Of a stretch of DNA of 64,000 bases, positions 9,401 through 64,000 are shown piece by piece (the first letter of the stretch is position 1; each line of letters begins with the position of its first letter). The notes beneath the pieces were generated by a model that did no database searches, was not told the DNA's origin, and saw nothing but the letters and a program-made list of their open reading frames with translations. The position numbers and the translations under genes are program-made. Origin of the DNA: Clostridia bacterium (GTDB lineage: Bacteria; Bacillota; Clostridia; Christensenellales; Borkfalkiaceae); NCBI GenBank assembly GCA_017408045.1, contig JAFQVL010000063.1, positions 5,568 through 69,567 of the forward strand, written 5' to 3'.

Positions 9401-11546
9401 CGTTTTTATCCACCGTGAATGCATATACCAAATCGGTAGAAAGCAATTCATTTCCGCTGTACCAGCCGATAAATTCATAGCCTAAATGAGGTGTTGCCGT
9501 TGCCGTTATAGCCTTGCCGTATTTATACGTACCCTTGTTTGTAATCGTGCCGTAAGTGGTATTATTTACCGATAATACATAAGCATTTCTCGTATAATAT
9601 ACGCTCAAAACACGGCCGCCGTCGCCGTCGATATTGCCACTTACCGTACTCATACTTGCGTTGTAGGTAAAGTGCGCATATTCCTTAATTGCCGCCGTTG
9701 CGGTGGTATCCGTTTTTCCTTTGCCTTCCACCGTTTCGTGCGGCGTGTAGTTATCATTGTCGATATTTTGCAAATAATAGATAACCGTGTATTTCGTATC
9801 GGTGTTTACAGACCAAGTCGCCGTATACGATGCGCTTTTTTCCGCTTTGAAGGTAAATACTTCGTCTTTACAAACGCAAGTTTCACCTTCGTACCAACCA
9901 AGCCAAGTATACCCTGCATTGGTGTTTGCTGTCAACGTGATTTGCTTGTCGTATTTATACGTACCTGCGCCCGAAATAACACCTGCTTTATCGTTGCTCT
10001 TCGTCGTGGAAATCGTATAGAAATTCCGTTTATAATATACGCTTAAAACTTGGCTACCGTCGCCGTCGATATTACCGCTCAATACGTTTTTAAAATACTC
10101 TTGATTGAGTGTAAAATGCGTATACTCCTTAATCTCTGCTTCTACGGTAGTATCCGTTTCCCCTTTACGTTTTTCGGTTTCGTATAAGGTATATTCGTCA
10201 TCGTCAAGGTTTTGCAAATAATAATTGACCGTATATTTTGTGTCTTTATTCACATACCAACCTGCCGTAATGGTCGTGTTTTCCGTAATCGGTTTTGTAA
10301 AATCGTAATCCCACCCTGTAAAGGTATAACCTGTCCTTGTTGTGGTTGGCTCGGTGGCAAGATAGCCTTCTTCTATCGTTTGCTTTTCCACCGGCGTACC
10401 GCCGTCTACGTCAAAGATTACTTCGTACTTATGCAAACGGTAAAGGTTTACCGTATACGTATTGCGCAACTCGTCGTCCAACATCTCAAATACGTATGCG
10501 ACGTTATTTCCTTCTTGTAAAGTTATCTTTTTCGTTGGAATCGGGGGCACACCGTTTTTATCAAAAGAAAGAATAAATTTCGCCTTTCCTACTACCGCGA
10601 CTTCGTCTACAAACGAAAATTCCGTTATTGCGTTTCGCACCGTGCCGTAGACGTTCGTGCCGTCCACGGTAAGGGTGTTGAATAAAATACCCGTTTCCTC
10701 TTGAAGTACATAGCCACAAACGGTGCAGGTTTGCGGCGTGTTTACTGTTGCGGGCGCACCTGCCGTGTGTTTTTCTTCGTTTTCTTTATCACCGCACTCG
10801 CATTCATGCCAATGGTGGGTGTCGTTGCTTTCCCATTCCGTGCTGTGTTCATGGGGGAGCTTGTCGATAGGCTCGGTTTTCGTTGCCGTTTTGCAAACCG
10901 TACACGTATAGGTCGTTTCGCCTTCTTTCGTGCAGGTCGGGGCTTTGGTTTCTTCGCCCTTATCCCAAGTATGTACGCCCGTCGCAGGGATTTCTTGGTA
11001 GGTGGAATACTCACACCCTTCTCTTTCGCAGGTTACGTATTCTTCCCAACCGATCTCCGTACAGGTGGGGGCTTTTGCTTGGTGTGTTTTCTCATCGTGC
11101 GTAAGGGCTTCTACGTCTTCGGTATAGGTCGCTGTTTCACAAACAGTACACGTAAACGTTTTTACACCCTTTTCCGTGCAAGTCGGTTCGGTGGTTACTG
11201 TACCGTCATCCCAAGTATGTACGCCCGTTACGGAAATTTCCTGGTAGGTGGAATACTCGCACCCTTCTCTTTCGCAGGTTACGTATTCGTTCCACCCAAT
11301 TTCCGTGCAGGTGGGGGCTTTTGCCTCGTGGGTTTTTTCATCGTGCCCGAGCGCAAGAATTTCTTGTGTGTAAGCACTGCCACAGGAGCAAGTGTACGTG
11401 ATTAAACCTTTTTCTATACAAGTCGCATTTTTTGTGATTTCCGCCGTATAAGCGTGCTCGTGTTGTTCACGGCACGCAGAAAAACCGAATATACATACAA
11501 GCATCGTCGTGATTGTCATAATAAAAAGTAAACGTTTCTTTTTCAT
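6420..11546 (-). CDS. giant cell-surface lipoprotein: Cys-rich repeats, Listeria-Bacteroides-type repeats and a BspA-type leucine-rich repeat array
   Basis: I chose the start at ATG 11546 because it has a GGAGG RBS. Signal peptide with lipobox (MKKKRLLFIMTITTMLVCIFGFSAC). Two about 82-aa near-identical Cys-rich repeats (HDEKTH.AKAPTCTEIGW.EYVTCEREGCEYSTYQEI...) span about 10853-11345. GYTFTGW repeat modules follow, then dozens of IP..VTSIG..AF..C..LTSI LRR units. Confidence 0.8.
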   Translation of the reverse strand: MKKKRLLFIMTITTMLVCIFGFSACREQHEHAYTAEITKNATCIEKGLITYTCSCGSAYTQEILALGHDEKTHEAKAPTCTEIGWNEYVTCEREGCEYSTYQEISVTGVHTWDDGTVTTEPTCTEKGVKTFTCTVCETATYTEDVEALTHDEKTHQAKAPTCTEIGWEEYVTCEREGCEYSTYQEIPATGVHTWDKGEETKAPTCTKEGETTYTCTVCKTATKTEPIDKLPHEHSTEWESNDTHHWHECECGDKENEEKHTAGAPATVNTPQTCTVCGYVLQEETGILFNTLTVDGTNVYGTVRNAITEFSFVDEVAVVGKAKFILSFDKNGVPPIPTKKITLQEGNNVAYVFEMLDDELRNTYTVNLYRLHKYEVIFDVDGGTPVEKQTIEEGYLATEPTTTRTGYTFTGWDYDFTKPITENTTITAGWYVNKDTKYTVNYYLQNLDDDEYTLYETEKRKGETDTTVEAEIKEYTHFTLNQEYFKNVLSGNIDGDGSQVLSVYYKRNFYTISTTKSNDKAGVISGAGTYKYDKQITLTANTNAGYTWLGWYEGETCVCKDEVFTFKAEKSASYTATWSVNTDTKYTVIYYLQNIDNDNYTPHETVEGKGKTDTTATAAIKEYAHFTYNASMSTVSGNIDGDGGRVLSVYYTRNAYVLSVNNTTYGTITNKGTYKYGKAITATATPHLGYEFIGWYSGNELLSTDLVYAFTVDKNVTAKFALKAEMSGFNFTSTTTTCEITGVKNKYVTEIVVPDYVTSISEGAFSGCSSLKSITIPFVGGSRKTATDTYQYPFGYIFGANSYTGGTETVQSYYGSSTSSTTSTTYYIPTSLKTVVVKGGNILYGAFESCNNLTSITIPDGITSIGDCAFEFCKGLTSITVPASVITIGENAFYYCNSLTSITVPDGVNSIGDYAFAYCNGLTSIAIPDSVTSIGKKAFYDCSYLTSIIVSENNTVYQSIDGNLYSKDGKTLIQYAIGKSATSFSLPINVTAIGDYAFAYCHRLTSITIPNSVVSIGKGAFCYCDSATGVVIGENVITIGEKAFAYCASVKSVSLGNSVNTIGDYAFKDCNKLASITIPDNITSIGEGAFYYCNGLWKVYVDSLAAWCNISFGDSYANPLWYAGSLYVNNEYITDLVIPDGVTSIGDYAFESCENMKSITIPASVNSIGNYAFGSGMDTMLKGIYITDLAAWCNISFSNSSANPLWRVENLYVNNEIITEFVIPDGVSTIGNYAFCQFKNLTNVVIPNSVTSIGEKAFAYCDGLTSIDIPASVISIEKMAFYGCTNLANVTVDQNNTAYQSIEGNLYTKDGTRLIQYAAAKTATTFIIPDGVISIENGAFSECYHLTSVVMPDSVVYVGDDAFYWCNRLKSVEFSNSITTIGAYAFYNCGSLTSVVIPNSVVSIGEKAFYQCNRLIEVINKSTHITVEKGYSTNGYVGYYALAVYNSDSGITESQLLNDNGYVICTDGDQKVLVGYVGTETDLVLPSYITEIHERAFYNCNTLTSVVIPDSITSIGVSAFYGCSSLESITMPFGWYRKDGFADKPLGYLFGGSSYKNNASYVPTSLKEVRITCGGIDQYAFYGCNSLTSVVIGDGVTSIGDYAFATCSSLTNVVIPDSVTSIGIQAFYSCGLTNVEIGGGVMSIGKEAFYKCGNLASVTFKDTFAWYQTTNLYSWQNKTGGTNTSVEDSSTNAKYFRMTYYDYYWYKL

Positions 11547-20890: not shown

Positions 20891-23800
20891 ATGGAAGGAA
20901 ATAGCAGAAAAATAATCATCACACCAACGCCGATGCCGGAACCGGGTTCAACCGAAGGCGATGATTCTATTAAGCATGAAATATCGAACGTGCAGCAGGA
21001 ATACGGATTGATTAAAGGCGTGAAAGCACACGTCAATTTTGACGATAAGAGCTACGCAATGTCCGTGCCGATCATTCAAGGCAAGGACACAACGATGGGT
21101 ATTACATTGTTGCAGATACATAACCCCAGCAACGAATTGACGGTCTTTGGCGGCGGCATTCGATTTAATTTCAGCGAGGAATTGCGGATAGACACAGAGG
21201 ATAGTAGCTACTACAAATACACAGACGAGGTTGGCAAGCAGGAGCGTTTTAAAAACCAATATTATTATAAAGGCAGCAGCTACGTATTAAGCGAAGCGGA
21301 TATAAACGAGATGACGTACGACCAAACGCTTGGTTGCTACGTACACGGCTCCGCAAAGGTGGAATACGACGGGCAGACAAAAAACGGATGGAGATTTGTA
21401 TCTGCCAAAGAAATGCCAACGGTGCAAGGGGTTTTAAGCGTAATGGAAACCAGCTTAAACACCGTAAAAAGCAATCACGACGAAGGTGAAACGTCAGGTA
21501 TGGCTACGAAAGCATATTATCTTAGGAAAGGCAACCAAATTAAAGTATTCAATACAGCTGGGTATCTAATTCAGATTGGCAACAGTACAGGTCAATTCGT
21601 GTATATTGTGCGAGAGAATGGGCACAAGATTTTGCGTATTTTTGACCATGAGGGCAGAGAGATTACCTTTGAGTACAGTAGCGGCAAACTGCAAAAAATC
21701 ACAGACAGCCGCGGTAGAGAAATTCTCTATACGTACGACGGACAAAGAGTCCAAAAAATCAGATACCGCGCGAATGCAAGCAGCAGTACTTCGTATGAAA
21801 GTTTAACCTATAATCACCATATCGTAGACGGCGTAAAGCAAAACAAGACCACTATTACATCTTCAGACGGCGAAAGCGCGACCTTAGAATATACCACGCA
21901 AGAGGGAAATTCGCTAACCAAAATCACCTACCAGCCGCAGAACAAAACGTTATCTTTTTTATACACCGACACAAAGGTTATTGTCAGCGCCGAAAAAGGC
22001 ACGCAGGAAGAAGGCACGCAGGAAGAAGGCACGCAGGAAGAATACACCGTTTATAGAGGCGCGGAGATTCCGTATATCAACGAATATAAACAGACGGTGA
22101 ACGGAAAGATAACGGCATACAATACCTATTTAATTGCCCAAAGAAGCGGGCTTATCGTGCGGGAAACGAAATATCCAAAGCGTTCACAGCTTTGCAAGGC
22201 AACGGTTCCAAGCAGCTTGCCGATTATCCACACGGTAAAGAACGATCGTCGAAAACTGGTTTTAGAGGAAACGCAGGAGAATATCGAGGTATCACCAACA
22301 GTCAACAAGGACGTGCATACGACGTATACTTATAACGAATATGGAATGCCTGTAAAACGCCGAACGGTAGAAACGTACTCCACGGGCGAAAGCTACGCTT
22401 ACGTAGAAGAAAGCTTTTACAATCCAACGACCCTTGGCTTACAAAAGAAAGTATCCTACGTAGAGGGCGAGGAGCAAACGACGGGATACGCGTTTGAATT
22501 CTATACCTACGACAGCCAAGGCAGAGTAATTAAAACCAAGACGGTGAGAAAGATTTGTGAATGCAGCGGGGATTGTACCTGTAAAGGGTTAGAGGATAGC
22601 ACCACTCTTTTGGGCTTCGTGCAGGAGCAGACCTATGACGAACACGGCAACGTGGTATCTAAAAAGGACGAAACGGGGCTGTATTATACGGCTTACACGT
22701 ATACGGAGAATACCAAACTTTTAAAGCGAGAGCATAGACCAGGGACTACCTCACAACACCAAATCGAATACACCTATGACGAACGGGATAGATTAGTCAA
22801 GGCGGCGGAAACAGCCACATATAACGTTATGGGGTATACCGCAGACAACGTTTCCGTAATGGGTGTAAAGAACAACGAACAGCTGTTGCAGTTTACTTAC
22901 GACACAAGAAAGCGATTGTCACAGGTATCGTTTGGCGGTAGCGTGTACGAGGGTATGGAGTATGGCGAGAACGAAACTTACAGCGAATACGACGTGGACA
23001 GGATTGAGCTGAACAACGCCAACGTCGAAAAATTCAAACTCTTGTCCGATGTAAAGGGCGCAAAGGAATGGTATTTCTACACCCCTGCTGCTACTGAGGA
23101 AAGCCCTACCCCTGAAGAAACCTTGTTGTTTACCAACGAATACGACGAATACGGACAGTTGGTGAAATTAGATGCAACCGTCTACGGCGATACGTATCAC
23201 TATGATGAAACGTACGAATATGACGAGACAGGTAGGCTAACCTATTACGACGGAGACCTTATCAGAGAAACGTATACGTATAACAATAAGGGACAGATAT
23301 CGCAGATTGTGTATACGGGTGTGGCAAGCAGAACGGAAACGCGAGAATACACGGACGATTCGCGAGGGTTGTTAGAGAGAATCAGCTACGGCGACGTGGC
23401 GTGCTGGAAAACGTATGATAAATACGGGCGTTTACAATACCAAGGAGTTGAGCTGAATGGTTGCTATGACGTGTCTGATATAAAGTATAAAACCGTAAAC
23501 GACCACGAAACGAATCAGGTGCAGGAATTTAGAAACTCGGTAGACTGCTTTACTTATACCTATGATAAAAATGGGAATATCACGGAAATCTACAACTGGG
23601 GCAACCTCATTAAAAAATACACGTACAGTATTCAGGGAAGATTGACCACGGAAGAAAATCTGTCGATATCACAAAAGACGGAATATACGTATAGCCAGCA
23701 AGGAGATATTACCCAAAAGACAAGGTATATAAAGGATTTTAATGGAAACTATTTTAAACCTACAACGAAAACCTATACGTACAGCACGGACGGAAAGTAT

Positions 23801-24880
23801 TTGTTGACGGCTTACAATGGTAGCGCGTGTGTATATGATGCGTTAGGTAATCCCACTACCTATAAAGGGAAGACCTTGGTGTGGGGTCAAGGGAAACGCT
23901 TGCTTTCTTACGACGGCTTAAATTTCACTTACGATGCGAGGGGTAGACGAATCCAAAAAGGCAGCGAAAGCTACTATTATGATAGCCGAGATAGGTTGGT
24001 AAGAGGTGGCGTGTTAGACTATTACTACGCCGATAACGAGGTAATAAGTTGTGCGTATAACGGCGTAAGATACATTTATTGCAAAGACGTGTTTGGAAAT
24101 ATTACGGCAATACTTGACGAAAACGAGAATGTTGTGGTAAAATATGATTACGATGCTTGGGGCAACCACCGTGTATTAAACAGCGCGGGCGCGGTAATCA
24201 CGGACACGCAGCATATCGGGCATAAGAATCCGTTTAGATACCGTGGGTATTATTACGATACCGAAACGGGGTTATATTACCTGAAATCAAGATATTACGA
24301 CCCCGAAACCTGCCGTTTCATCAATATGGACAGCGTGGAATACGCCGACCCGACCTACCTGCACGGCTTAAATCTCTACGCATATTGTAATAACAACCCC
24401 ATTATGTACGTTGACCCGAACGGGAATTTCTTCTGGCTATTAGTAGTTTTGGGTTTAGGTGCAGTAGCGGGCGGTATTTTAAGTGGAGTAGAAGCGTATA
24501 ACAGCGGTGATCGAGGCTGGGAACTTGCAGGGGATATTGTTTTAGGGGCAACCATAGGGGTTGCTGTTGCTGGAGCCGCTATAACGGTTTCCTCTGTTGT
24601 TGCTGGTGCATTTGGTCAAGTTGCTTTTTTAGGAACAACGGTTAAACAAGCATTTGCTATTGGCGCGTTGGCATATAATGGTTTTGGTGCGATAGTTGCG
24701 CCGCTAATAGGACAAAGTATGCAGCTGATAGAAATAGGAGGCAATTCTTATAAGGATGCTATAGAATATCCTGTTTCAGGAATTACAACCACGAATGGTA
24801 TCGTTAAGAATAATCAAAGCCCTAATTCAAACGTAAAAAATCTTTTTAGAAAATTAAGGAATTTAAAAGATTTTATGTAA
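20891..24880 (+). CDS. RHS/YD-repeat polymorphic toxin with glycine-zipper hydrophobic C-terminal domain
   Basis: Many YD repeats (YTYDERDRL, YEYDETGRL, YTYDKNGNI, FTYDARGRR...). RHS core end is RYRGYYYDTETGLYYLKSRYYDPETCRFINMDS...YVDPNG (D at 24413). An about 150-aa Gly/Ala-rich hydrophobic tail follows (GLGAVAGGILSG, GATIGVAVAGAAI, AIGALAYNGFGAIVAPLIG). Confidence 0.9.
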   Translation: MEGNSRKIIITPTPMPEPGSTEGDDSIKHEISNVQQEYGLIKGVKAHVNFDDKSYAMSVPIIQGKDTTMGITLLQIHNPSNELTVFGGGIRFNFSEELRIDTEDSSYYKYTDEVGKQERFKNQYYYKGSSYVLSEADINEMTYDQTLGCYVHGSAKVEYDGQTKNGWRFVSAKEMPTVQGVLSVMETSLNTVKSNHDEGETSGMATKAYYLRKGNQIKVFNTAGYLIQIGNSTGQFVYIVRENGHKILRIFDHEGREITFEYSSGKLQKITDSRGREILYTYDGQRVQKIRYRANASSSTSYESLTYNHHIVDGVKQNKTTITSSDGESATLEYTTQEGNSLTKITYQPQNKTLSFLYTDTKVIVSAEKGTQEEGTQEEGTQEEYTVYRGAEIPYINEYKQTVNGKITAYNTYLIAQRSGLIVRETKYPKRSQLCKATVPSSLPIIHTVKNDRRKLVLEETQENIEVSPTVNKDVHTTYTYNEYGMPVKRRTVETYSTGESYAYVEESFYNPTTLGLQKKVSYVEGEEQTTGYAFEFYTYDSQGRVIKTKTVRKICECSGDCTCKGLEDSTTLLGFVQEQTYDEHGNVVSKKDETGLYYTAYTYTENTKLLKREHRPGTTSQHQIEYTYDERDRLVKAAETATYNVMGYTADNVSVMGVKNNEQLLQFTYDTRKRLSQVSFGGSVYEGMEYGENETYSEYDVDRIELNNANVEKFKLLSDVKGAKEWYFYTPAATEESPTPEETLLFTNEYDEYGQLVKLDATVYGDTYHYDETYEYDETGRLTYYDGDLIRETYTYNNKGQISQIVYTGVASRTETREYTDDSRGLLERISYGDVACWKTYDKYGRLQYQGVELNGCYDVSDIKYKTVNDHETNQVQEFRNSVDCFTYTYDKNGNITEIYNWGNLIKKYTYSIQGRLTTEENLSISQKTEYTYSQQGDITQKTRYIKDFNGNYFKPTTKTYTYSTDGKYLLTAYNGSACVYDALGNPTTYKGKTLVWGQGKRLLSYDGLNFTYDARGRRIQKGSESYYYDSRDRLVRGGVLDYYYADNEVISCAYNGVRYIYCKDVFGNITAILDENENVVVKYDYDAWGNHRVLNSAGAVITDTQHIGHKNPFRYRGYYYDTETGLYYLKSRYYDPETCRFINMDSVEYADPTYLHGLNLYAYCNNNPIMYVDPNGNFFWLLVVLGLGAVAGGILSGVEAYNSGDRGWELAGDIVLGATIGVAVAGAAITVSSVVAGAFGQVAFLGTTVKQAFAIGALAYNGFGAIVAPLIGQSMQLIEIGGNSYKDAIEYPVSGITTTNGIVKNNQSPNSNVKNLFRKLRNLKDFM
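21998..22042 (+). repeat. 3 x 15-bp perfect in-frame tandem repeat (GGCACGCAGGAAGAA; GTQEE x3) inside the RHS gene
   Basis: Read directly from the sequence: three consecutive identical 15-mers. Confidence 0.95.
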
Positions 24881-59387: not shown

Positions 59388-60827
59388 ATGATAGAAAAGA
59401 ATACGATTATTACCGCCGTGACGAGCGCGATTGGGTCGAACGGGGAAGGCATCGTCAGGCACGAAGGGATTACCTTTTTCGTGCCTGCTTGTTTACCGGG
59501 TGAAAAGGTGCGCTTTCGGGTTTTGAAGGTCAAGGACGGTATCGGATATGGAAAAATAGAGGAGATTTTGACTCCTGCCGAAGAGCGTGTACGTGAAAAA
59601 TGTCCCGTATTTTTGCGTTGCGGCGGCTGCAAATTGCAGCATATGGAATACGGCACGCAGTTGTACTTTAAGCAGAATATCGTCAAGGACTGTTTGCGCA
59701 AAATCGGGGGCTTAAACGTCGAGGTAAAGCCGACGGTAAAAAGCGATTTGCCCTACGCCTATCGCAATAAGTTGCAGTTGCCGGTGGGGGTAGACAAAGA
59801 GGGAAATACCGTCATCGGGTTCTATGCCGAGCGCTCCCATCGTATCGTGCCGACGGATAGTTGCGCGATTCATCCAAAGTGGGCGGAAAAACTGATTGCT
59901 GTCATCAAACGCTACTGCGCGGAGTGGGGTGTCGAGGGGTACGATGAGGACAGAAAAACGGGTGTTTTGCGCCATATCGTAGCAAGGGAAATCGGTGAAA
60001 ACTTCTTAATCACGCTAGTGTGCACGCAAAAGAGCCTTCCGGCGCTGCCGCATCTTATCGAGCTGCTTTCGATGGTGTTTTCCGTTTTCTCGCTGTATAT
60101 CAACGTAAACGACAAGGATACCAACGTAATTCTTGGAAAAGAGTTTCATCTCGTACACGGTAGCCCCGTTTACGAGGCGCAGGAACAGGGGATTTTGTAC
60201 GAGGCAGGGCCTCAGACCTTTTTGCAGGTCAATGAAAACGTGCGCTCAAAACTATACAACGCCGCCCTCAAGTCGGTGATTGAAACGGGGGACGAAGTGG
60301 TGGTAGATGCCTATTCGGGCGGCGGCTTATTGACGGCGATGCTGGCAAAGCGCGCAAAGCGAGTGTATGGCATTGAGTTAGAGCCAGAGGCGGTGGCTTG
60401 CGCCAATTCGCTCAAGCAAAAGAACGGCTTAAAAAATATGACGAACATCTGCGGCTACGTAGAGGAAAAACTTGCGGCGGTACTGGAACAAGAGCGCGGC
60501 GAAAAGGTGCGCTTAATTCTCGATCCACCGAGAGCAGGAATACACCGCAGCGTATTAAAGGCGCTGCTGGAAAGTGGGATACCGTCGTTGACGATTATCT
60601 CGTGTAATCCGTCGACTTTGGCGCGGGATTTGGGGATTTTGACAGGCAGACTGATTGAAAAAGAGGGTTCAAACGGAGAGTTGATTAAAAACCCTGCTTA
60701 CGAGGGTTTAGCAGACGACGAAACTCTGCCTGGGTACTACGCTCCGACGAAGATTCAGCCGTATGATATGTTCCCCCAAACGAAACACGTAGAGACGCTG
60801 GTTTGCCTTGCGCGCAAGGCGGACTAA
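59388..60827 (+). CDS. rlmD: 23S rRNA (uracil-5-)-methyltransferase RlmD/RumA family
   Basis: I chose the start at ATG 59388, which has an AAGGGGG RBS. TRAM domain, a 4-Cys Fe-S cluster (CPVFLRCGGCKLQH), LDPPRAG, ISCNPSTLARD and the DMFPQTKHVE C-terminus. Confidence 0.88.
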   Translation: MIEKNTIITAVTSAIGSNGEGIVRHEGITFFVPACLPGEKVRFRVLKVKDGIGYGKIEEILTPAEERVREKCPVFLRCGGCKLQHMEYGTQLYFKQNIVKDCLRKIGGLNVEVKPTVKSDLPYAYRNKLQLPVGVDKEGNTVIGFYAERSHRIVPTDSCAIHPKWAEKLIAVIKRYCAEWGVEGYDEDRKTGVLRHIVAREIGENFLITLVCTQKSLPALPHLIELLSMVFSVFSLYINVNDKDTNVILGKEFHLVHGSPVYEAQEQGILYEAGPQTFLQVNENVRSKLYNAALKSVIETGDEVVVDAYSGGGLLTAMLAKRAKRVYGIELEPEAVACANSLKQKNGLKNMTNICGYVEEKLAAVLEQERGEKVRLILDPPRAGIHRSVLKALLESGIPSLTIISCNPSTLARDLGILTGRLIEKEGSNGELIKNPAYEGLADDETLPGYYAPTKIQPYDMFPQTKHVETLVCLARKAD

Positions 60828-60896
60828 AATATCTATCCGCCCCCTGCGGGAGTTTATTGACGCAAGGGCAGGATACATATTTTAGTGTTTTACACG

Positions 60897-61034
60897 GAAA
60901 ACAAAAACGAGCGTATCAAGTGTTTTAGTTCGCCGTCGGCGAGAGACGGACATACATTCCGCTTTGCGGGATATATGTTCCCCCAAACCAAACACGTGGA
61001 AAGTTTAGTTTGTCTGACGAAGCAGACAAACTAA
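60897..61034 (+). pseudogene. relic 3' fragment of a second rumA/rlmD-like gene; 60897-60995 is direct-repeat copy A
   Basis: In-frame reading gives ...ERIKCFSSPSARDGHTFRFAGYMFPQTKHVESLVCLTKQTN*. Compare the genuine RlmD end ...ISCNPSTLARD...YDMFPQTKHVETLVCLARKAD*. There is no upstream body. Confidence 0.7.
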
Positions 61035-61259
61035 AGCGATATAAATCCTCACGGATTTGCGATATTTGCCTTGTGGCAAGCGATATGCCTGCGGCGCGAT
61101 ATGCCGCGAACTGCGCGGCGTGAGGATTTATAGGTAGCGTGCTTTCCACCACGTTCGCCATAGGCGAACATATCGCTGTTTCGCAACACGAAACAATATC
61201 GCGCGCGCGGAGCGAGCATATCGCGCACCGAAGGTGCATATCGCGTGAGCGAAGCGAAC
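61004..61259. repeat. mirror array 2: 4 x GCGATAT, then 4 x ATATCGC, with ten different flush mini-hairpins
   Basis: GCGATAT at 61036, 61059, 61080 and 61096. ATATCGC at 61170, 61196, 61218 and 61238. Hairpins are 61004-61035 (13 bp), AAATCC-TCAC-GGATTT, TTGCC-TTGT-GGCAA, GCC-TGC-GGC, GCCGCG-AACTG-CGCGGC, TTCGCC-ATA-GGCGAA, TGTTTCG-CAACA-CGAAACA, GCgCGC-GGA-GCGaGC, GCACC-GAA-GGTGC and a partial one at 61245-61259. Confidence 0.9.
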
Positions 61260-61349
61260 TAAAATAGGACAAAAGTGATTTTTGAGCAAACCTCAAAACT
61301 CTTATTTACATCTGTTTGGTATAACATATCGAAAGAAAAGGAAGTGCAT

Positions 61350-62354
61350 ATGACATCTTTGCTGCTAAAAAATTTTAGAGACCTATACAATAAACACCAA
61401 TTTAGTGATAATCTTCCTAATTATTCTGTTTTGTGGCATTATACCAGTGTTAATGGGCTTATGGGTATTGTACAAAATGCAACTTCAGAGCATGGAAAAC
61501 TGCACTTTTGGTTTACTCGTAGTGATTGTCTAAATGACACCTCTGAGGGGATGCATGTTTTGGATTTATTTAAGAGAATATGTTGTGAATTGTTAAGTAA
61601 GGGACAAATAAGCAATGCTTTTTATGAATGTTTGAAACACATTGAAATACCAAATAGCCACTTCGTTAGTTTCCCTGTTCCTAGCGACGAAAAATATACA
61701 CATATGAGTGTTCTTGATTGTCCAGAGTGCGATGCCTATATTTGCAGTTTTTCATTAAAAGAAGATTCTTTGGATATGTGGCGATATTATTCCAAGGGAG
61801 ATGGGGGCTATGCGTTAAAACTTTATGCATTTATGTTCGATAAACATAAGGAGTATGAGTATTCTGACTATGATGAAAAAGCTGTTTTCAGCAACATTTC
61901 TTCATATAAAGTCATTTACGATGAAGCAACTAAACAAAACATGCTCGAAAATGTCATTTTGGATACTTTCAAAGTTTATGAACAGTTAATAGAAACAGAG
62001 CCAGACTGTGAAGAAAACGCAATGGGTTTTATCAAGCACGCATTAAAAATATTCCAATTTCAATTTAAACACGACTGTTACGCTTCGGAACAAGAATATC
62101 GCTTTGTTTTTTATCGTCCATGTAGCAAGCCCGAATTGTTACAAAACGAACTACCTGAAGTGAAATACAGATCACAGAACGGAGTAATTGTTCCGTATAT
62201 AGACCTCACCATAGAAAATGGCGCATCGTACTTATCAGAAGTTTTAATTAGTCCATTTATCAAGAGTAAAGTGGTTAAAAAAACAACACAAGAATATTTG
62301 TCTCAATGTGGTATTAACTGTGAAGTACGACACTCGGAATTGCCTGTTCGGTGA
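61350..62354 (+). CDS. DUF2971-like protein
   Basis: I chose the start at ATG 61350 (MTSLLLKNF...). LWHYTSVNGLMGIV...WFTRSDCLNDTSEG...EQEYRFVF resembles the DUF2971 pattern. The gene is markedly AT-rich. Confidence 0.55.
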   Translation: MTSLLLKNFRDLYNKHQFSDNLPNYSVLWHYTSVNGLMGIVQNATSEHGKLHFWFTRSDCLNDTSEGMHVLDLFKRICCELLSKGQISNAFYECLKHIEIPNSHFVSFPVPSDEKYTHMSVLDCPECDAYICSFSLKEDSLDMWRYYSKGDGGYALKLYAFMFDKHKEYEYSDYDEKAVFSNISSYKVIYDEATKQNMLENVILDTFKVYEQLIETEPDCEENAMGFIKHALKIFQFQFKHDCYASEQEYRFVFYRPCSKPELLQNELPEVKYRSQNGVIVPYIDLTIENGASYLSEVLISPFIKSKVVKKTTQEYLSQCGINCEVRHSELPVR

Positions 62355-62421
62355 GCAAATGTTAAAGAATAGCTAGGATTCCGTAAAATAAGTTGTTATT
62401 AGTGTTTAGGAGATAAATCAA

Positions 62422-62883
62422 ATGAAAAAGTTATTAGCTTTATGCTTGACAGTAGTTTTATGCTTATGCTGTCTTGCATCGTGCGGTATTACGGGATTTC
62501 GTTCTATAAGCTATCAGGATGCTGACACGGAAAGGTTATTAATGGACGGTTATGCACCAAAAAGGGCAAAGCCCGGCGATATCGTTGTGCTCCGCACAGG
62601 TCCTATTATGGACGCCAACCTCGATTTATACGCTAATGGTGTAAAGCTCGATAACACCCATAACGATTCTGATTATTGGGAATATATTTTTACAATGCCT
62701 GACGAGGATGTTGTAATAACGCATGACATAATCGGTGGATTTGGATATAAGGAGTGCGTTAACCACATTGACGAAAACAAAAACGAGCGTATCAAGTGTT
62801 TTAGTTCGCCGTCGGCGAGAGACGGACATACATTCCGCTTTGCGGGATATATGTTCCCCCAAACGAAACACTTGTTTTCATAA
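62422..62883 (+). CDS. small lipoprotein whose last about 36 codons derive from the rumA-relic repeat
   Basis: Signal peptide and lipobox MKKLLALCLTVVLCLCCLASCG. The C-terminus ...NKNERIKCFSSPSARDGHTFRFAGYMFPQTKHLFS* is encoded by repeat copy B (62773-62871). Confidence 0.6.
   Translation: MKKLLALCLTVVLCLCCLASCGITGFRSISYQDADTERLLMDGYAPKRAKPGDIVVLRTGPIMDANLDLYANGVKLDNTHNDSDYWEYIFTMPDEDVVITHDIIGGFGYKECVNHIDENKNERIKCFSSPSARDGHTFRFAGYMFPQTKHLFS
62773..62871 (+). repeat. 99-bp direct repeat copy B (98/99 identical to 60897-60995)
   Basis: Base-by-base comparison shows a single C/G difference (60989 vs 62865). The last 23 bp, ATATGTTCCCCCAAAC[G/C]AAACAC, also occur at 60766-60788 inside rlmD. Confidence 0.9.
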
Positions 62884-62953
62884 GATTGTGGGACAATTTA
62901 ATAGATAGGTCGATTTTAGCAAAAACACAAAGTAAGAACCAAGGAGGTAATAT

Positions 62954-64000
62954 ATGAAAATTATAAAATGTCAATTATTGCTTGTATTAGTAAGTTTGTG
63001 TTTTTTGTTAGGCGGATGCGGATTTTTGCCGTCTGGAAATTTTGGCGGAAGTCAACCCGCGCAAACGATTGATAACTTTGAATTTATTACGGATGAGAAG
63101 TTGACGATTGAAAATTTTTCCGATGATGAATACTACAAATTAGTTTTGTACGCTGGGGAAGAATATCAAATAAAAACTACCGTCGACGATCAGCTGGGCG
63201 AAGATTATTACATAAAATACGTGACGGATGACGATATTGACGGTAAGTTTACTTTGTCCGAGGACGGAAAAATAGAGACAAATTCCGCCCTGGAAAGCAA
63301 TGAAACTTTTGTCGTTGACGCGGAATTATATCAAACGGGTTTCACCAAGAGAATTAAGCGAAAGTATTTGATTTTGTCCATTTTGGTTGGGGAATATGCA
63401 ACCGTAACTTTGACCAACGACGGTTTGGAATACGACGAAAATACTTCCACCTATTCTCTTGCTGTTGAGTCGGGAAACTCTTTTTCGCTCTCTTATACCG
63501 TTTCCTATAACACCGCGTATATAATGACCTTTTCTCTTGCCGATCCGAACGACGCACCCTTTATATCGGTAGACGATCAAGGGCGTATTACGACGAGTAA
63601 AGTGGGCGAAGATAAAGCCTGCGAAATTGTCGTTCGTTTGACGGGTGCAAATGGTATGCTGGATGTCGTATTTTTACAAGTAACGCTTAAAAAGAGTGCG
63701 GATTTTATTAACCAACTTACGGTTGTAAACAAAGCCAACGCGCAAAGCATTCAAGACGGGGACGTCCTGACCATGTACAAAGGCACAGAACTTGCCTTTG
63801 ATATAAAATACAACAACGAATTAAAGACGCAAGCGATTACGGTTGGTTCCGCTTCCGTTTTACAGGTAAATAACGACACGAATACGCTGAAAGCAACGGA
63901 TATCGGTACGAGCGAAGTGGTTTTTGCTTACGCGGATAAACAAATCACCGTTACGGTAAACGTAGTGAAAGACCACTTGACTAGGTTGTATGCGGAAAAC
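62954..64000 (+). CDS. lipoprotein with Ig-like (Big-type) repeats, partial (runs off the window)
   Basis: ATG at 62954 with an AAGGAGG RBS. MKIIKCQLLLVLVSLCFLLGGCG lipobox. The frame is open to 64000 and beta-rich (..TLKATDIGTSEVVFAY..ITVTVNVV). It is absent from the ORF track because there is no stop. Confidence 0.65.
   Translation, partial: MKIIKCQLLLVLVSLCFLLGGCGFLPSGNFGGSQPAQTIDNFEFITDEKLTIENFSDDEYYKLVLYAGEEYQIKTTVDDQLGEDYYIKYVTDDDIDGKFTLSEDGKIETNSALESNETFVVDAELYQTGFTKRIKRKYLILSILVGEYATVTLTNDGLEYDENTSTYSLAVESGNSFSLSYTVSYNTAYIMTFSLADPNDAPFISVDDQGRITTSKVGEDKACEIVVRLTGANGMLDVVFLQVTLKKSADFINQLTVVNKANAQSIQDGDVLTMYKGTELAFDIKYNNELKTQAITVGSASVLQVNNDTNTLKATDIGTSEVVFAYADKQITVTVNVVKDHLTRLYAEN

Follow-up and report, generated by a model that had tools for sequence, protein, structure and literature searches.

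A probable recombinase-free accretion array at the rlmD attachment site of an uncultured Christensenellales bacterium

Introduction

In Candidatus Scatosoma (Christensenellales), an uncultured gut bacterium represented by a short-read metagenome assembly, the methyltransferase gene rlmD is followed by further copies of its own 3' sequence. The window (the whole stretch of 64,000 nucleotides that was analysed) raises the question of how these copies arose and whether they mark the two ends of a single integrated element. The related gene rumA is described, in passages of PMC5357655 citing Ambroset 2016, as a common integration site of streptococcal ICEs and integrative mobilizable elements (IMEs) with serine integrases, and IME_SpnAP200_rumA is a streptococcal element that targets it (PMC5704250). 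Cis-mobilizable elements (CIMEs) and accretion at att sites have been defined, and IME/CIME tandems have been reviewed (PMC5704250). We propose, with a probability of roughly 0.7, that the locus is the left part of a decayed 5.4-kb composite island that lacks a recombinase, sits at an rlmD attachment site and grew by tandem accretion in a CIME-like manner.

Results

The 23-bp core reported by the sequence-only reading (ATATGTTCCCCCAAAC[G/C]AAACAC) occurs exactly three times, always on the + strand (60766-60788, 60973-60995 and 62849-62871), and was absent from all 100 shuffled sequences (0 copies expected). The second and third copies end a direct repeat pair of 102 nt (60897-60998 and 62773-62874; 98% identical), and over 60897-60995 the previously reported 98 of 99 identical positions were recovered. 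The native rlmD tail and the relic tail share 73% identity across 63 nt. GC content drops from ~0.50 to 0.32-0.36 between ~61350 and 62400 and is still low (0.33-0.44) from ~62400 to the window end. An assembly artefact, a concern with short-read metagenome data that had also been raised as a check, is almost certainly not the source of the 99-bp duplication: the region 60700-63000 has the same arrangement, with 0-1 SNP, in four further assemblies, which derive from different samples (L001/L069, L002, L003 and L068), and a k of 141, used in some of them, exceeds the repeat length.

Table 1 Features of the rlmD 3' region, in window coordinates.
Feature	Position	Strand	Basis or context
rlmD, 23S rRNA U5-methyltransferase, 479 aa	59388..60827	+	Pfam PF05958 + TRAM
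Left half-site B (core copy 1), codons DMFPQTKH	60766..60788	+	Left half shared by occupied and empty sites of relatives
Crossover dinucleotide GT, within CACGT of the H-V codons	60789..60790	+	Sole sequence common to three left-half classes, >20 junctions
Right half-site and surrogate rlmD tail (AGAGACGCTGGTTTGCCTTGCGCGCAAGGCGGACTAAAAT)	60791..60830	+	36/44 identical (hand count) to displaced tail, L001 10111-10150
Hairpin H, 26-nt arms, 85% complementary	60823..60886	+	3' of rlmD stop codon in aligned X-bearing relatives
Module X copy 1, conserved structured non-coding, most of the 99-bp repeat	60887..60972	+	Nine-genome alignment
B* (core copy 2) + GT, decoy copy of rlmD left half-site	60973..60997	+	Base-paired with 5' strand of X in consensus fold
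Right half-site P'a with 13-bp hairpin (61004-61035), encoding the '...VESLVCLTKQTN' tail of the relic ORF	60998..61035	+	
Mirror array: 4 x GCGATAT, then 4 x ATATCGC, small hairpins between words	61036..61265	+	
3' part of cassette leader, covarying hairpin TTTTGAG-N5-CTCAAAA	61266..61349	+	Directly 5' of first cargo gene
Cargo gene, DUF2971 protein, 334 aa	61350..62354	+	Pfam PF11185
Truncated lipoprotein gene	62422..62883	+	Genuine coding to ~62785; last ~33 codons read through into X copy 2
9-nt microhomology junction GAAAACAAA(A)ACG, lipoprotein gene / X copy 2	62773..62785	+	Three-way comparison: junction, relic, intact L070 gene
X copy 2 + B (core copy 3), TT in place of GT	62773..62873	+	nhmmer score 95.9
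M6-metalloprotease-like lipoprotein gene, 1059 aa, 5' part	62955..64000	+	Island's last cargo gene, ends at window-equivalent 66133

Orthologues of rlmD in Ca. Scatosoma MAGs are 70-91% identical. Across related genomes with RlmD proteins 45-91% identical, recombination fell on the same GT, immediately 3' of the core, in more than 20 junctions. The rlmD 3' end is indeed, as had been suggested, an integration hotspot with a surrogate gene end, and in this lineage a site-specific one. Because the junctions always fall on this GT, the core is a left half-site and not the recombination core that it was first taken for. GT follows core copies 1 and 2 (60789-90 and 60996-97); copy 3 has TT (62872-73). 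The left halves comprise three unrelated classes, namely rlmD codons, the cassette P-arm (...ACCTTTTGGAGTCTTGACCCAC) and the 3' ends of large serine recombinase (LSR) genes, all joined at GT to a single right-half class. The P-arm, LSR 3' ends and right halves showed little dyad symmetry by eye.

The island extends from 60789 to ~66175, 2.2 kb past the window end, and the window holds its left 3.2 kb. At window-equivalent 66175-66214 (L001 10111-10150, GT-CGAGACGTTGGTTTGCCTTGCGCGCAAAGCGGATAAATAA) stands the original rlmD tail, displaced from the gene. It is followed in L001 by a DUF386 gene syntenic with L004, to which homology (92%) resumes at L001 10188. The locus had been read as either a decayed or satellite element or the left part of a larger island; the larger island was found, and a self-contained 1.8-kb unit was not upheld. 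Clean empty sites, for which a comparison had been advised, are present in L005 (RlmD 90% identical) and L006, where a DUF1292-like gene, c8, begins 24-25 bp past rlmD. In L004, c8 follows a second rlmD tail copy, identical to the first at 44 of 44 positions, 1752 bp downstream. The L004 array bracketed by these identical copies runs native-like site, X-B*-GT-P'1, P-GT-P'2, P-GT-P'3, P-GT-original tail.

The second 99-bp copy has a different left edge. There the lipoprotein gene, intact in L070 and represented by a 229-aa full-length homologue (P0003, 98% identical across the shared part), is cut short, and homology to L070 ends at 62785. No right half-site was recognisable after core copy 3, where the sequence resembles one only weakly by eye, and the right junction of this copy may also be illegitimate. 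Since copy 2 joins the truncated gene through a 9-nt microhomology, the repeats are not the clean attL/attR pair, or element ends, of the original proposal. That they are nonetheless attL and attR of one 1.8-kb satellite that integrated itself into the rlmD tail is improbable. Their near identity, their shared end at the same CAC and the AT-rich insert would suit such an element, but it would not account for the microhomology join inside a gene intact elsewhere, for the single X at that position in at least 10 other genomes that lack the insert, for TT replacing GT with no clear right half-site, or for AT-rich DNA and island extending 3.3 kb further.

Between the rlmD stop codon and B* lie hairpin H and module X. 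The sequence of H is poorly conserved (57% mean pairwise identity), and a palindromic stretch is predicted by eye at its position in aligned relatives. Module X is as conserved as the rlmD coding sequence, with indels that are not multiples of 3. Its fold across nine genomes comprises 20 pairs (96% paired), 7 of which have compensatory changes, and these are spread over three helices; none of 500 shuffles reached these values. Such covariation is unexpected for a plain double-stranded recombinase site and counts against the explanation that we prefer. About 76 nt of the 99-bp repeat belong to X, which comes after rlmD in at least 11 related genomes. The core of the first repeat copy had been placed in a relic rumA-like 3' fragment, and B* does copy the rlmD left half-site, but most of the repeat is this structured module.

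Downstream of B*, the first 27 nt of P'a past the GT are identical in the L027 relic, and an L009 cassette end (10438) is similar. By its Rfam score the mirror array is a relative of the orphan Gut-1 RNA motif that stays under the threshold (RF01706; 33.8 bits, E 8e-5, below the GA of 50); the array of L007, with 50.7 bits, attains the gathering score. The window's array is predicted to fold as a ladder (MFE -115.7 kcal/mol, z -6.7). Passages of Weinberg et al. 2010 (PMC2864571) present Gut-1 as a likely non-coding RNA found only in human-gut sequence and give no gene association. Both motifs consist of a repeated 7-nt word separated by short hairpins; the word here is GCGATAT, whereas that of Gut-1 is GUGAAAU, and the motif here forms one half of a mirror-symmetric array within rlmD-linked islands. 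Copies of the leader, 70-87% identical, precede unrelated ORFs in L007, L009, L026, L029, L032, L047, L070 and L077. The DUF2971 gene, 97% identical at the DNA level in L070, gave a weak PADLOC PDC-S31 match.

Neither a recombinase nor a remnant was found between the repeats, where the earlier reading had seen none either, elsewhere in the window, in the next 10 kb, where a check for one had been advised, or within 8 kb of rlmD in 61 genome loci. LSRs of two types, 556 and 558 aa long and 59.5% identical to each other (Resolvase + Recombinase + Zn_ribbon_recom), are encoded on seven contigs that come from different samples. The last codons of both (SVESVVCLTRK*) cross the GT into the right half-site, and 3' of the genes a leader-c41 cassette is followed by P-arm-GT-rlmD tail; the contigs stop short of the element's left end, the expected join to rlmD. 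NikA-like, relaxase and TnpV genes precede the 556-aa LSR where upstream sequence exists, so this element looks like an IME. LSR C-terminal fragments adjoin the displaced rlmD tail in L073/L074, and in L067 such a fragment has a weak tail-like match (E 0.076) close by. Among annotated proteins, the L077 LSR is nearest to a Streptococcus constellatus 'prophage' integrase (46.8% identity), whose C-terminus (QVECVVLM*) also resembles the methyltransferase tail. Serine recombinases were the only recombinase class found at the site, and no tyrosine recombinase motif was detected in the window or the related loci searched. Since the window, the 10 kb beyond and the 61 rlmD loci hold no recombinase, the LSR is linked to the site only through these other contigs, which lead us to infer that the islands are the work of such enzymes.

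Discussion

In the accretion model, elements of this lineage would use one fixed GT within the H-V-E codons for recombination, and the right arm of the incoming DNA would mimic the rlmD tail (nGAnnnnnTnGTTTGyCT...stop) and supply the last 12 codons of rlmD. Because of this mimicry rlmD would stay intact and the new left junction would resemble an unoccupied site, which would in turn permit further insertion. Older units would be pushed downstream, with the original gene tail ending the array, and every unit in this genome has lost, or never had, a recombinase, which is why the CIME definition fits. Unit 1 would be the 207 bp of surrogate tail, H, X and B*; unit 2 would carry a hairpin, the Gut-1-like array, the leader and the DUF2971 and lipoprotein genes; and unit 3 the M6-like protease gene. 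The left side of the second 99-bp copy would stem from an illegitimate, microhomology-mediated event (9 nt, GAAAACAAA) and not from a recombinase, the lipoprotein gene being fused to a second X-B copy either by deletion or by homology-facilitated illegitimate recombination with related-strain DNA. An LSR would have made the GT junctions of the window, and the order of events would be as given here. LSRs normally recombine attP only with attB; that the left junction may be used again is suggested by the similarity of the right arms. A single enzyme family might, though this is unproven, recognise the P-arm, the LSR 3' ends and the right halves alike.

Module X invites two further readings. It is possible, if doubtful, that the 207-bp H-X-B* is a functional landing pad, a decoy site with a structured arm that channels serial, integron-like capture of small cassettes (leader-ORF-P-arm) by a trans-acting serine recombinase downstream of an intact rlmD. 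X lies directly 3' of rlmD, with other inserts downstream of it, in every X-bearing genome examined, is conserved like coding sequence and covaries; B* has the species-specific substitutions of native B in several relatives (by eye); L004 cassettes are small, co-oriented and leaderless; and copies of the cassette ORF c41 are 99% identical in genomes that share 66% identity in rlmD. The fixed position could also reflect vertical inheritance within a subclade, however, cassettes occur without X in L029, L032 and L047, and covariation suggests an RNA or ssDNA role that serine recombinases do not need. Alternatively, X, with H, might be mainly a structured RNA of rlmD (such as a 3'-UTR element, terminator or sRNA) whose gene-tail likeness is incidental to mobile DNA; compensatory changes in three helices and the long hairpin that immediately follows the stop codon speak for this. 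We consider this unlikely: the duplicated half-site B* forms the 3' end of helix 1 and stops beside the GT at which foreign DNA joins in readable X-bearing junctions, X matched no Rfam family, and L005, a close relative of L004, lacks X together with the whole insert.

The arrays could also have formed without a site-specific enzyme, at a homologous-recombination hotspot anchored by rlmD and short conserved modules. The exchange boundaries of c41 inside the conserved leader and P-arm, and the recombinase-independent microhomology junction of the window, would fit this; it is quite improbable given that more than 20 junctions share one dinucleotide despite unrelated left arms and divergent RlmD (45-91%), and that LSR genes and remnants lie exactly at that GT. 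Very improbable is an integron-like tyrosine-recombinase or hairpin-dependent ssDNA system with attC-like sites. Cassettes are co-oriented, their 90-110-nt ends have internal repeats and X folds with a half-site in its stem, but the P-arm repeats are direct and not inverted, no GTTRRRY/RYYYAAC boxes were seen, a motif search of the window and the related loci covered gave no tyrosine recombinase, and the recombinases found at the site are all serine enzymes.

The proposed accretion array closely recalls CIMEs and tandem accretion, as with ICESt1/ICESt3 at fda in Streptococcus thermophilus and the IME/CIME tandems reviewed in PMC5704250: units are free of recombinase and transfer genes, a conserved gene has the flanking att-type repeats at its 3' end, repeated site-specific integration stacks the elements, and the original gene end is at the far side. 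Those examples use tyrosine integrases and new insertions enter attR, whereas the enzyme associated here is an LSR and the order of the array hints that the junction nearest the gene is used again; units here can be as small as about 0.45-0.8 kb with a common conserved leader and P-arm, and the window's array has an illegitimate junction. The streptococcal rumA ICEs/IMEs share the target family (23S rRNA U5-methyltransferase), the recombinase class and relaxase-bearing mobilizable elements. They are described at an internal rumA site, whereas here a surrogate tail keeps the gene intact, the host is an uncultured Christensenellales bacterium and LSR identity is only 47%. Integron cassette arrays likewise hold small co-oriented cassettes, as in L004, each with a conserved recombination arm of ~100 nt, next to a fixed upstream platform; here there is no adjacent intI, tyrosine recombinase or attC R/L box to be seen, many cassettes bring a leader with them, and the tail of a housekeeping gene serves as the platform. 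Tycheposon-type arrays at Prochlorococcus tRNA genes also comprise cargo-only remnants with partial copies of the target 3' end, in tandem at few hotspots, but their recombinases are tyrosine enzymes, their targets tRNA genes and their host a marine cyanobacterium. The type of event at this locus is a known one, and the locus has some unusual conserved structured parts.

An island bracketed by two copies of the rlmD 3' end

Three copies of the 23-bp string ATATGTTCCCCCAAAC[G/C]AAACAC were found in the window, at 60766, 60973 and 62849, compared to 0 in 100 shuffles, and the two copies of a 99-102-nt direct repeat (60897-60998 and 62773-62874) were 98% identical, in agreement with the sequence-only reading. 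Over 63 nt, the 'relic' tail downstream was 73% identical to the native tail of rlmD, and GC content fell from ~0.50 to 0.32-0.36 between the repeats and stayed low up to the window end. The possibility that the repeats were an assembly duplication was dispelled by four further assemblies from other samples, which differed by 0-1 SNP and had the same arrangement; the duplication is thus genuine, and the island was present in 5/5 assemblies of this strain.

RlmD relatives placed the window in Candidatus Scatosoma, a Christensenellales-type Clostridia lineage represented by gut MAGs from animals and humans. We compared 61 genome loci with flanks, the closest species being L004 (RlmD 91% identical to that of the window; 90% for L005). 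In L005 and L006, alignment placed c8, an 87-aa gene, 24-25 bp after rlmD, giving the clean empty sites that had been sought. In L004, the DNA after rlmD comprised a hairpin, the 'relic' in another copy and three small ORFs that each terminate in a conserved arm of ~100 nt (the P-arm, ...ACCTTTTGGAGTCTTGACCCAC), then a second rlmD tail adjoining c8. The inserted DNA of L004 thus lies between direct repeats of the rlmD 3' end, identical at 44/44 positions.

A profile search for right half-sites in L001, the same contig extended 10 kb beyond the window (window coordinate = L001 coordinate + 56064), found GT-CGAGACGTTGGTTTGCCTTGCGCGCAAAGCGGATAAATAA at L001 10111-10150, directly 3' of the gene for a 1059-aa M6-like lipoprotein and 5' of a DUF386 gene, where the sequence again becomes homologous to L004 (92%). 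Measured between the two GTs, the island thus spans 5386 bp (see table) and continues beyond 64000, as the sequence-only reading had allowed. Its bracketing tails (60789-60830 and L001 10111-10150) were 36/44 identical when counted by hand. Empty sites, bracketing tails and a shared GT together bear out the proposed signature of site-specific integration at the rlmD 3' end. Approximately 4 kb past the right end of the island are genes for a 447-aa TIR_2-domain protein and a GDPD (L001 14402-15745, window-equivalent 70466-71809, outside the window), which had no PADLOC match.

Features of the island at the 3' end of rlmD, in window coordinates
Order	Feature	Position
	rlmD	59388-60827
1	Surrogate rlmD tail	60791-60830
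2	Hairpin H	60823-60886
3	Module X	60887-60972
4	Decoy half-site + GT	60973-60997
5	Right half-site P'a with 13-bp hairpin	60998-61035
6	Mirror array	61036-61265
7	Common cassette leader, 3' part	61266-61349
8	DUF2971 gene	61350-62354
9	Truncated lipoprotein gene/ORF	62422-62883
10	X copy 2 + left half-site + TT	62773-62873
11	M6-like lipoprotein gene (1059 aa)	62955 to 66133, past window end
12	Displaced original rlmD tail	66175-66214 (outside window)

Insertions share a central GT

More than 20 junctions were tabulated from genomes with RlmD 45-91% identical to that of the window. The left halves fell into three unrelated classes (rlmD codons, cassette P-arms and recombinase gene 3' ends), and the right halves were of one type, nGAnnnnnTnGTTTGyCT, coding (H)VExLVCL, a few codons and a stop. 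The central GT was the sole sequence common to all tabulated junctions and was constant across unrelated inserts, with the exception of the third copy in the window, which has TT. The junctions are consistent with a GT crossover between partners whose right arms are alike, as surrogate tails. The 23-bp string does recur, as the sequence-only reading stated, but since GT alone is shared by all junctions, the string is the left half-site rather than the core, with the crossover probably immediately 3' of it.

A one-ORF cassette in L075 (5176-6860) occupies the equivalent H-V-E GT of a paralogous 392-aa U5-methyltransferase gene and has a P-arm-like end (ACCTTTTGTACTATTACTCAC-GT), indicating that the system is not confined to rlmD proper. 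Some lineages have a native RlmD with a ~100-aa C-terminal extension after HVETLVCL, and element insertion at GT leaves this extension as a separate ORF starting at the att site (L033 9410-9770, L047 10026-10382 and L084 8303-8815).

A resident structured module and its second copy

Most of the 99-bp repeat is formed by module X, which occurred once after rlmD in nine relatives (L004, L007, L009, L011, L024, L027, L038, L060 and L067), with partial matches in two more distant loci (L041 and L054). L067, the one locus added by a pattern search of metagenomes, is from another species and also has the module. Wherever X was present, the hairpin H that follows the rlmD stop, X and the decoy copy of the left half-site come first, with other inserts downstream. 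The indels in X are not multiples of three, and X is therefore non-coding; its mean pairwise identity was 73.6%, compared to 72.0% for rlmD coding sequence and 57% for H. The X consensus folds into three helices with 20 pairs (96% paired), 7 of which show compensatory changes, a result reached by 0/500 shuffles, and in helix 1 the decoy half-site is the pairing partner of the X 5' strand. This covariation points to a single-stranded role, as RNA or ssDNA. The 99-bp repeats differ at one position (C/G), in a column that is paired in helix 1; the relic copy (C at 60989) has a mismatch there, and copy 2 (G at 62865) pairs as U-G and agrees with the native half-site of rlmD at 23/23 positions. In L011, a ~40-nt direct repeat, GCAAAGCGCCGTGTTTACACGAGCGTGACGAGCCATAAA (9437-9480 and 9596-9635), flanks X and replaces the usual end of decoy half-site and GT, another rearranged version of the module.

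The lipoprotein ORF before copy 2 is truncated, its homologue P0003 being 229 aa and 98% identical across the shared part. The contig encoding P0003 (L070) was 97.2% identical to window 61267-62785, and this homology ended inside GAAAACAAA(A/G)ACG, a string with which X copy 2 also begins (13 nt). Copy 2 is thus joined on its left side by microhomology. On its right side, CAC is followed by TT, not GT, with a weak right half-site likeness beyond. The view that the 99-bp repeats are the ends of one element is overturned by the residence of X after rlmD in relatives and by this junction: they represent instead a resident module that has been duplicated, the left junction being illegitimate. Copy 2 could have arisen by a deletion joining the lipoprotein gene to a downstream X, or by homology-facilitated illegitimate recombination with related-strain DNA anchored in rlmD.

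Cassettes with common arms and unrelated cargo

The mirror array consists of 4 x GCGATAT followed by 4 x ATATCGC, the words being separated by hairpins. One half of it matched the Rfam family Gut-1 (RF01706) at 33.8 bits (E 8e-5), under the 50-bit gathering threshold, and the other half scored 16.5. The homologous array in L007 (6787-6990) reached 50.7 bits, above the threshold, and a third version was present in L070 (1-330; 6 + 5 copies). The 7-8-nt repeat word differs by genome (GCGATAT in the window, GTGAAGTT in L007 and GTGATAT in L070), and the arrays fold as ladders of junctions (z -6.7 and -9.0). A gene of the four-helix-bundle 23S_rRNA_IVP family follows the array in L070 (Pfam) and in L007 (by eye). 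In the 2010 paper that describes it (PMC2864571), Gut-1 figures as a likely non-coding RNA, found in human-gut sequence only.

Unrelated cargo ORFs share both a leader and the P-arm. The leader (~75-190 nt; window 61266-61349, L029 9480-9598, L032 7760-7876, L047 9470-9599 and L077 4900-5000) contains a covarying hairpin, TTTTGAG-N5-CTCAAAA (TTTCGAG/CTCGAAA in L047), together with an invariant string, TATAACATATCGAAAGGAG, right before the start codon. A clear sigma-70 promoter was not found in the leader, and scanning the region for promoters and terminators gave nothing informative. The DNA of c41, a gene for a 170-aa membrane protein, was 99.0% identical between L029 (9599-10111) and L032 (7877-8389), two genomes with 66% identity in rlmD. 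The flanking leader and P-arm were 70% and 75% identical, placing the boundaries of this recent c41 exchange inside the conserved arms. A ~7-kb gene cluster also lies 3' of rlmD in two MAGs assigned to different genera (L046 9969-17285 and L047 10610-17404; RlmD 71% and 45% identical to that of the window), with cluster proteins that are nearly identical from the printed sequences and by eye resemble beta-helix, kinase-like and AMP-ligase-like proteins.

Serine recombinases in related contigs

Recombinases were not found anywhere in the window, in the following 10 kb, where the sequence-only reading had advised looking for one, or at any genome locus up to 8 kb away from rlmD. The window and L001 were searched by Pfam, motif scan and tblastn with two large serine recombinases (LSRs), described below; window 1 to ~15000 was covered by motif scan and tblastn only, and Pfam annotation of ~15-58 kb was without recombinase. 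An integrase of its own and transfer genes were absent from the window and L001, as in a cis-mobilizable element (CIME). Judged by eye, the 390-455-aa ORFs beside rlmD in ten relatives included no integrase and appeared to encode metabolic, methylase, ATPase or unknown proteins, and the conserved downstream gene clusters appeared housekeeping-like. Exact patterns of the core, X, P-arm and leader gave no match in viral_contigs, nor did 60828-62900 match phages by blastn.

The c41 gene led to seven metagenome contigs with an LSR gene directly before the cassette. The LSR gene that is absent from an element end beside an att site in the window is present there in related contigs (L077-L089). These LSRs are 556 or 558 aa and of two types (genes at L077 3147-4817 and L086 441-2117), 59.5% identical, both with Resolvase, Recombinase and Zn_ribbon_recom domains. 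Both genes end ...SVESVVCLTRK-stop, reading over GT into the right half-site, and are followed by leader, c41, P-arm, and then GT and the rlmD tail. Where upstream sequence exists, NikA-like, relaxase and TnpV genes come before the 556-aa LSR. C-terminal LSR fragments adjoin a displaced rlmD tail in L073 and L074, and in L067 an LSR fragment lies close to a tail-like match that is weak. Among annotated proteins, the closest relative, at 46.8% identity, comes from a 'prophage' record of Streptococcus constellatus; it is an integrase whose C-terminus, QVECVVLM-stop, likewise resembles a methyltransferase tail. No rlmD body was found within 10 kb upstream of the LSR-bearing element in L084 or L087, and L033 was dropped as a candidate left end because a long native RlmD C-terminal extension explains it. 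Upstream of the element, L087 1-749 encodes an RHS/YD-shell fragment followed by small ORFs of 165 and 162 aa; window 20891-24880 contains a gene for a 1329-aa RHS/YD-shell protein, then a 155-aa ORF.

Discussion

The locus is probably a serine-integrase accretion at rumA/rlmD that has decayed to recombinase-less units. Accretion of decayed integrative elements at this gene is an already-known event class: in streptococci, ICEs and IMEs that use serine integrases commonly integrate at rumA (PMC5357655), in line with the hotspot named in the sequence-only reading, and both CIMEs and accretion in tandem are well-defined concepts (PMC5704250).

In the model we propose, an LSR-bearing mobilizable element would integrate at GT, its right arm mimicking the rlmD tail so that a functional RlmD C-terminus is kept. 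The left end would read rlmD body ...ATGTTCCC.CAAAC.AAACAC-GT- joined to element DNA, and the empty site …AAACAC-GT-CGAGACGTTGG…; owing to the mimic arm, the gene-proximal junction would still pass for an unoccupied site. Repeated insertion would then yield rlmD, the newest unit, P-GT-P' junctions, the oldest unit and P-GT-original tail. Units may lose recombinase and transfer genes, or be captured without them, and those remaining would be CIME-like cassettes, movable in trans or cis. We consider it probable (roughly 0.7) that the window island is such an array with one illegitimate junction. The weakest links of the model are that LSRs normally recombine attP with attB only, that no LSR was found in this genome and that no left junction of the LSR element with rlmD was found.

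Other cassette systems fit the locus poorly. An integron was rejected since scans of the window and a first set of loci found no tyrosine-recombinase motif and the gene upstream of the platform is rlmD; by eye, the consensus of the P-arm contains two direct repeats and terminates in ...GACCCAC-GT, with no GTTRRRY as in attC. IMEX/dif and IS200/IS605-type mechanisms were dropped because their defining sequences or genes are lacking. A further reading, suggested by sequence features and in our judgement unlikely, is that the 207-bp module (surrogate tail, H, X and decoy half-site) might be a selected landing pad, capturing cassettes with a trans-acting LSR. If so, it would protect rlmD while offering a fresh attachment site, Christensenellales genomes would capture and shuffle sub-kilobase leader-ORF-P-arm cassettes in a serine-recombinase analogue of the integron, and orphan Gut-1 arrays would be functional in some cassettes.

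Under the accretion reading, the crossover nucleotide is defined and candidate recombinases are directly testable, and serine integrases that combine mimic arms with a bacterial target both compact and conserved are of practical interest for genome engineering. Gut-1 gains a genomic context. The locus represents a recurrent gene-flow hotspot in an abundant uncultured gut lineage (Ca. Scatosoma/Christensenellales), in which very small recombinase-less units with common arms move between species, as seen for c41 (99%, compared to 66% for rlmD).
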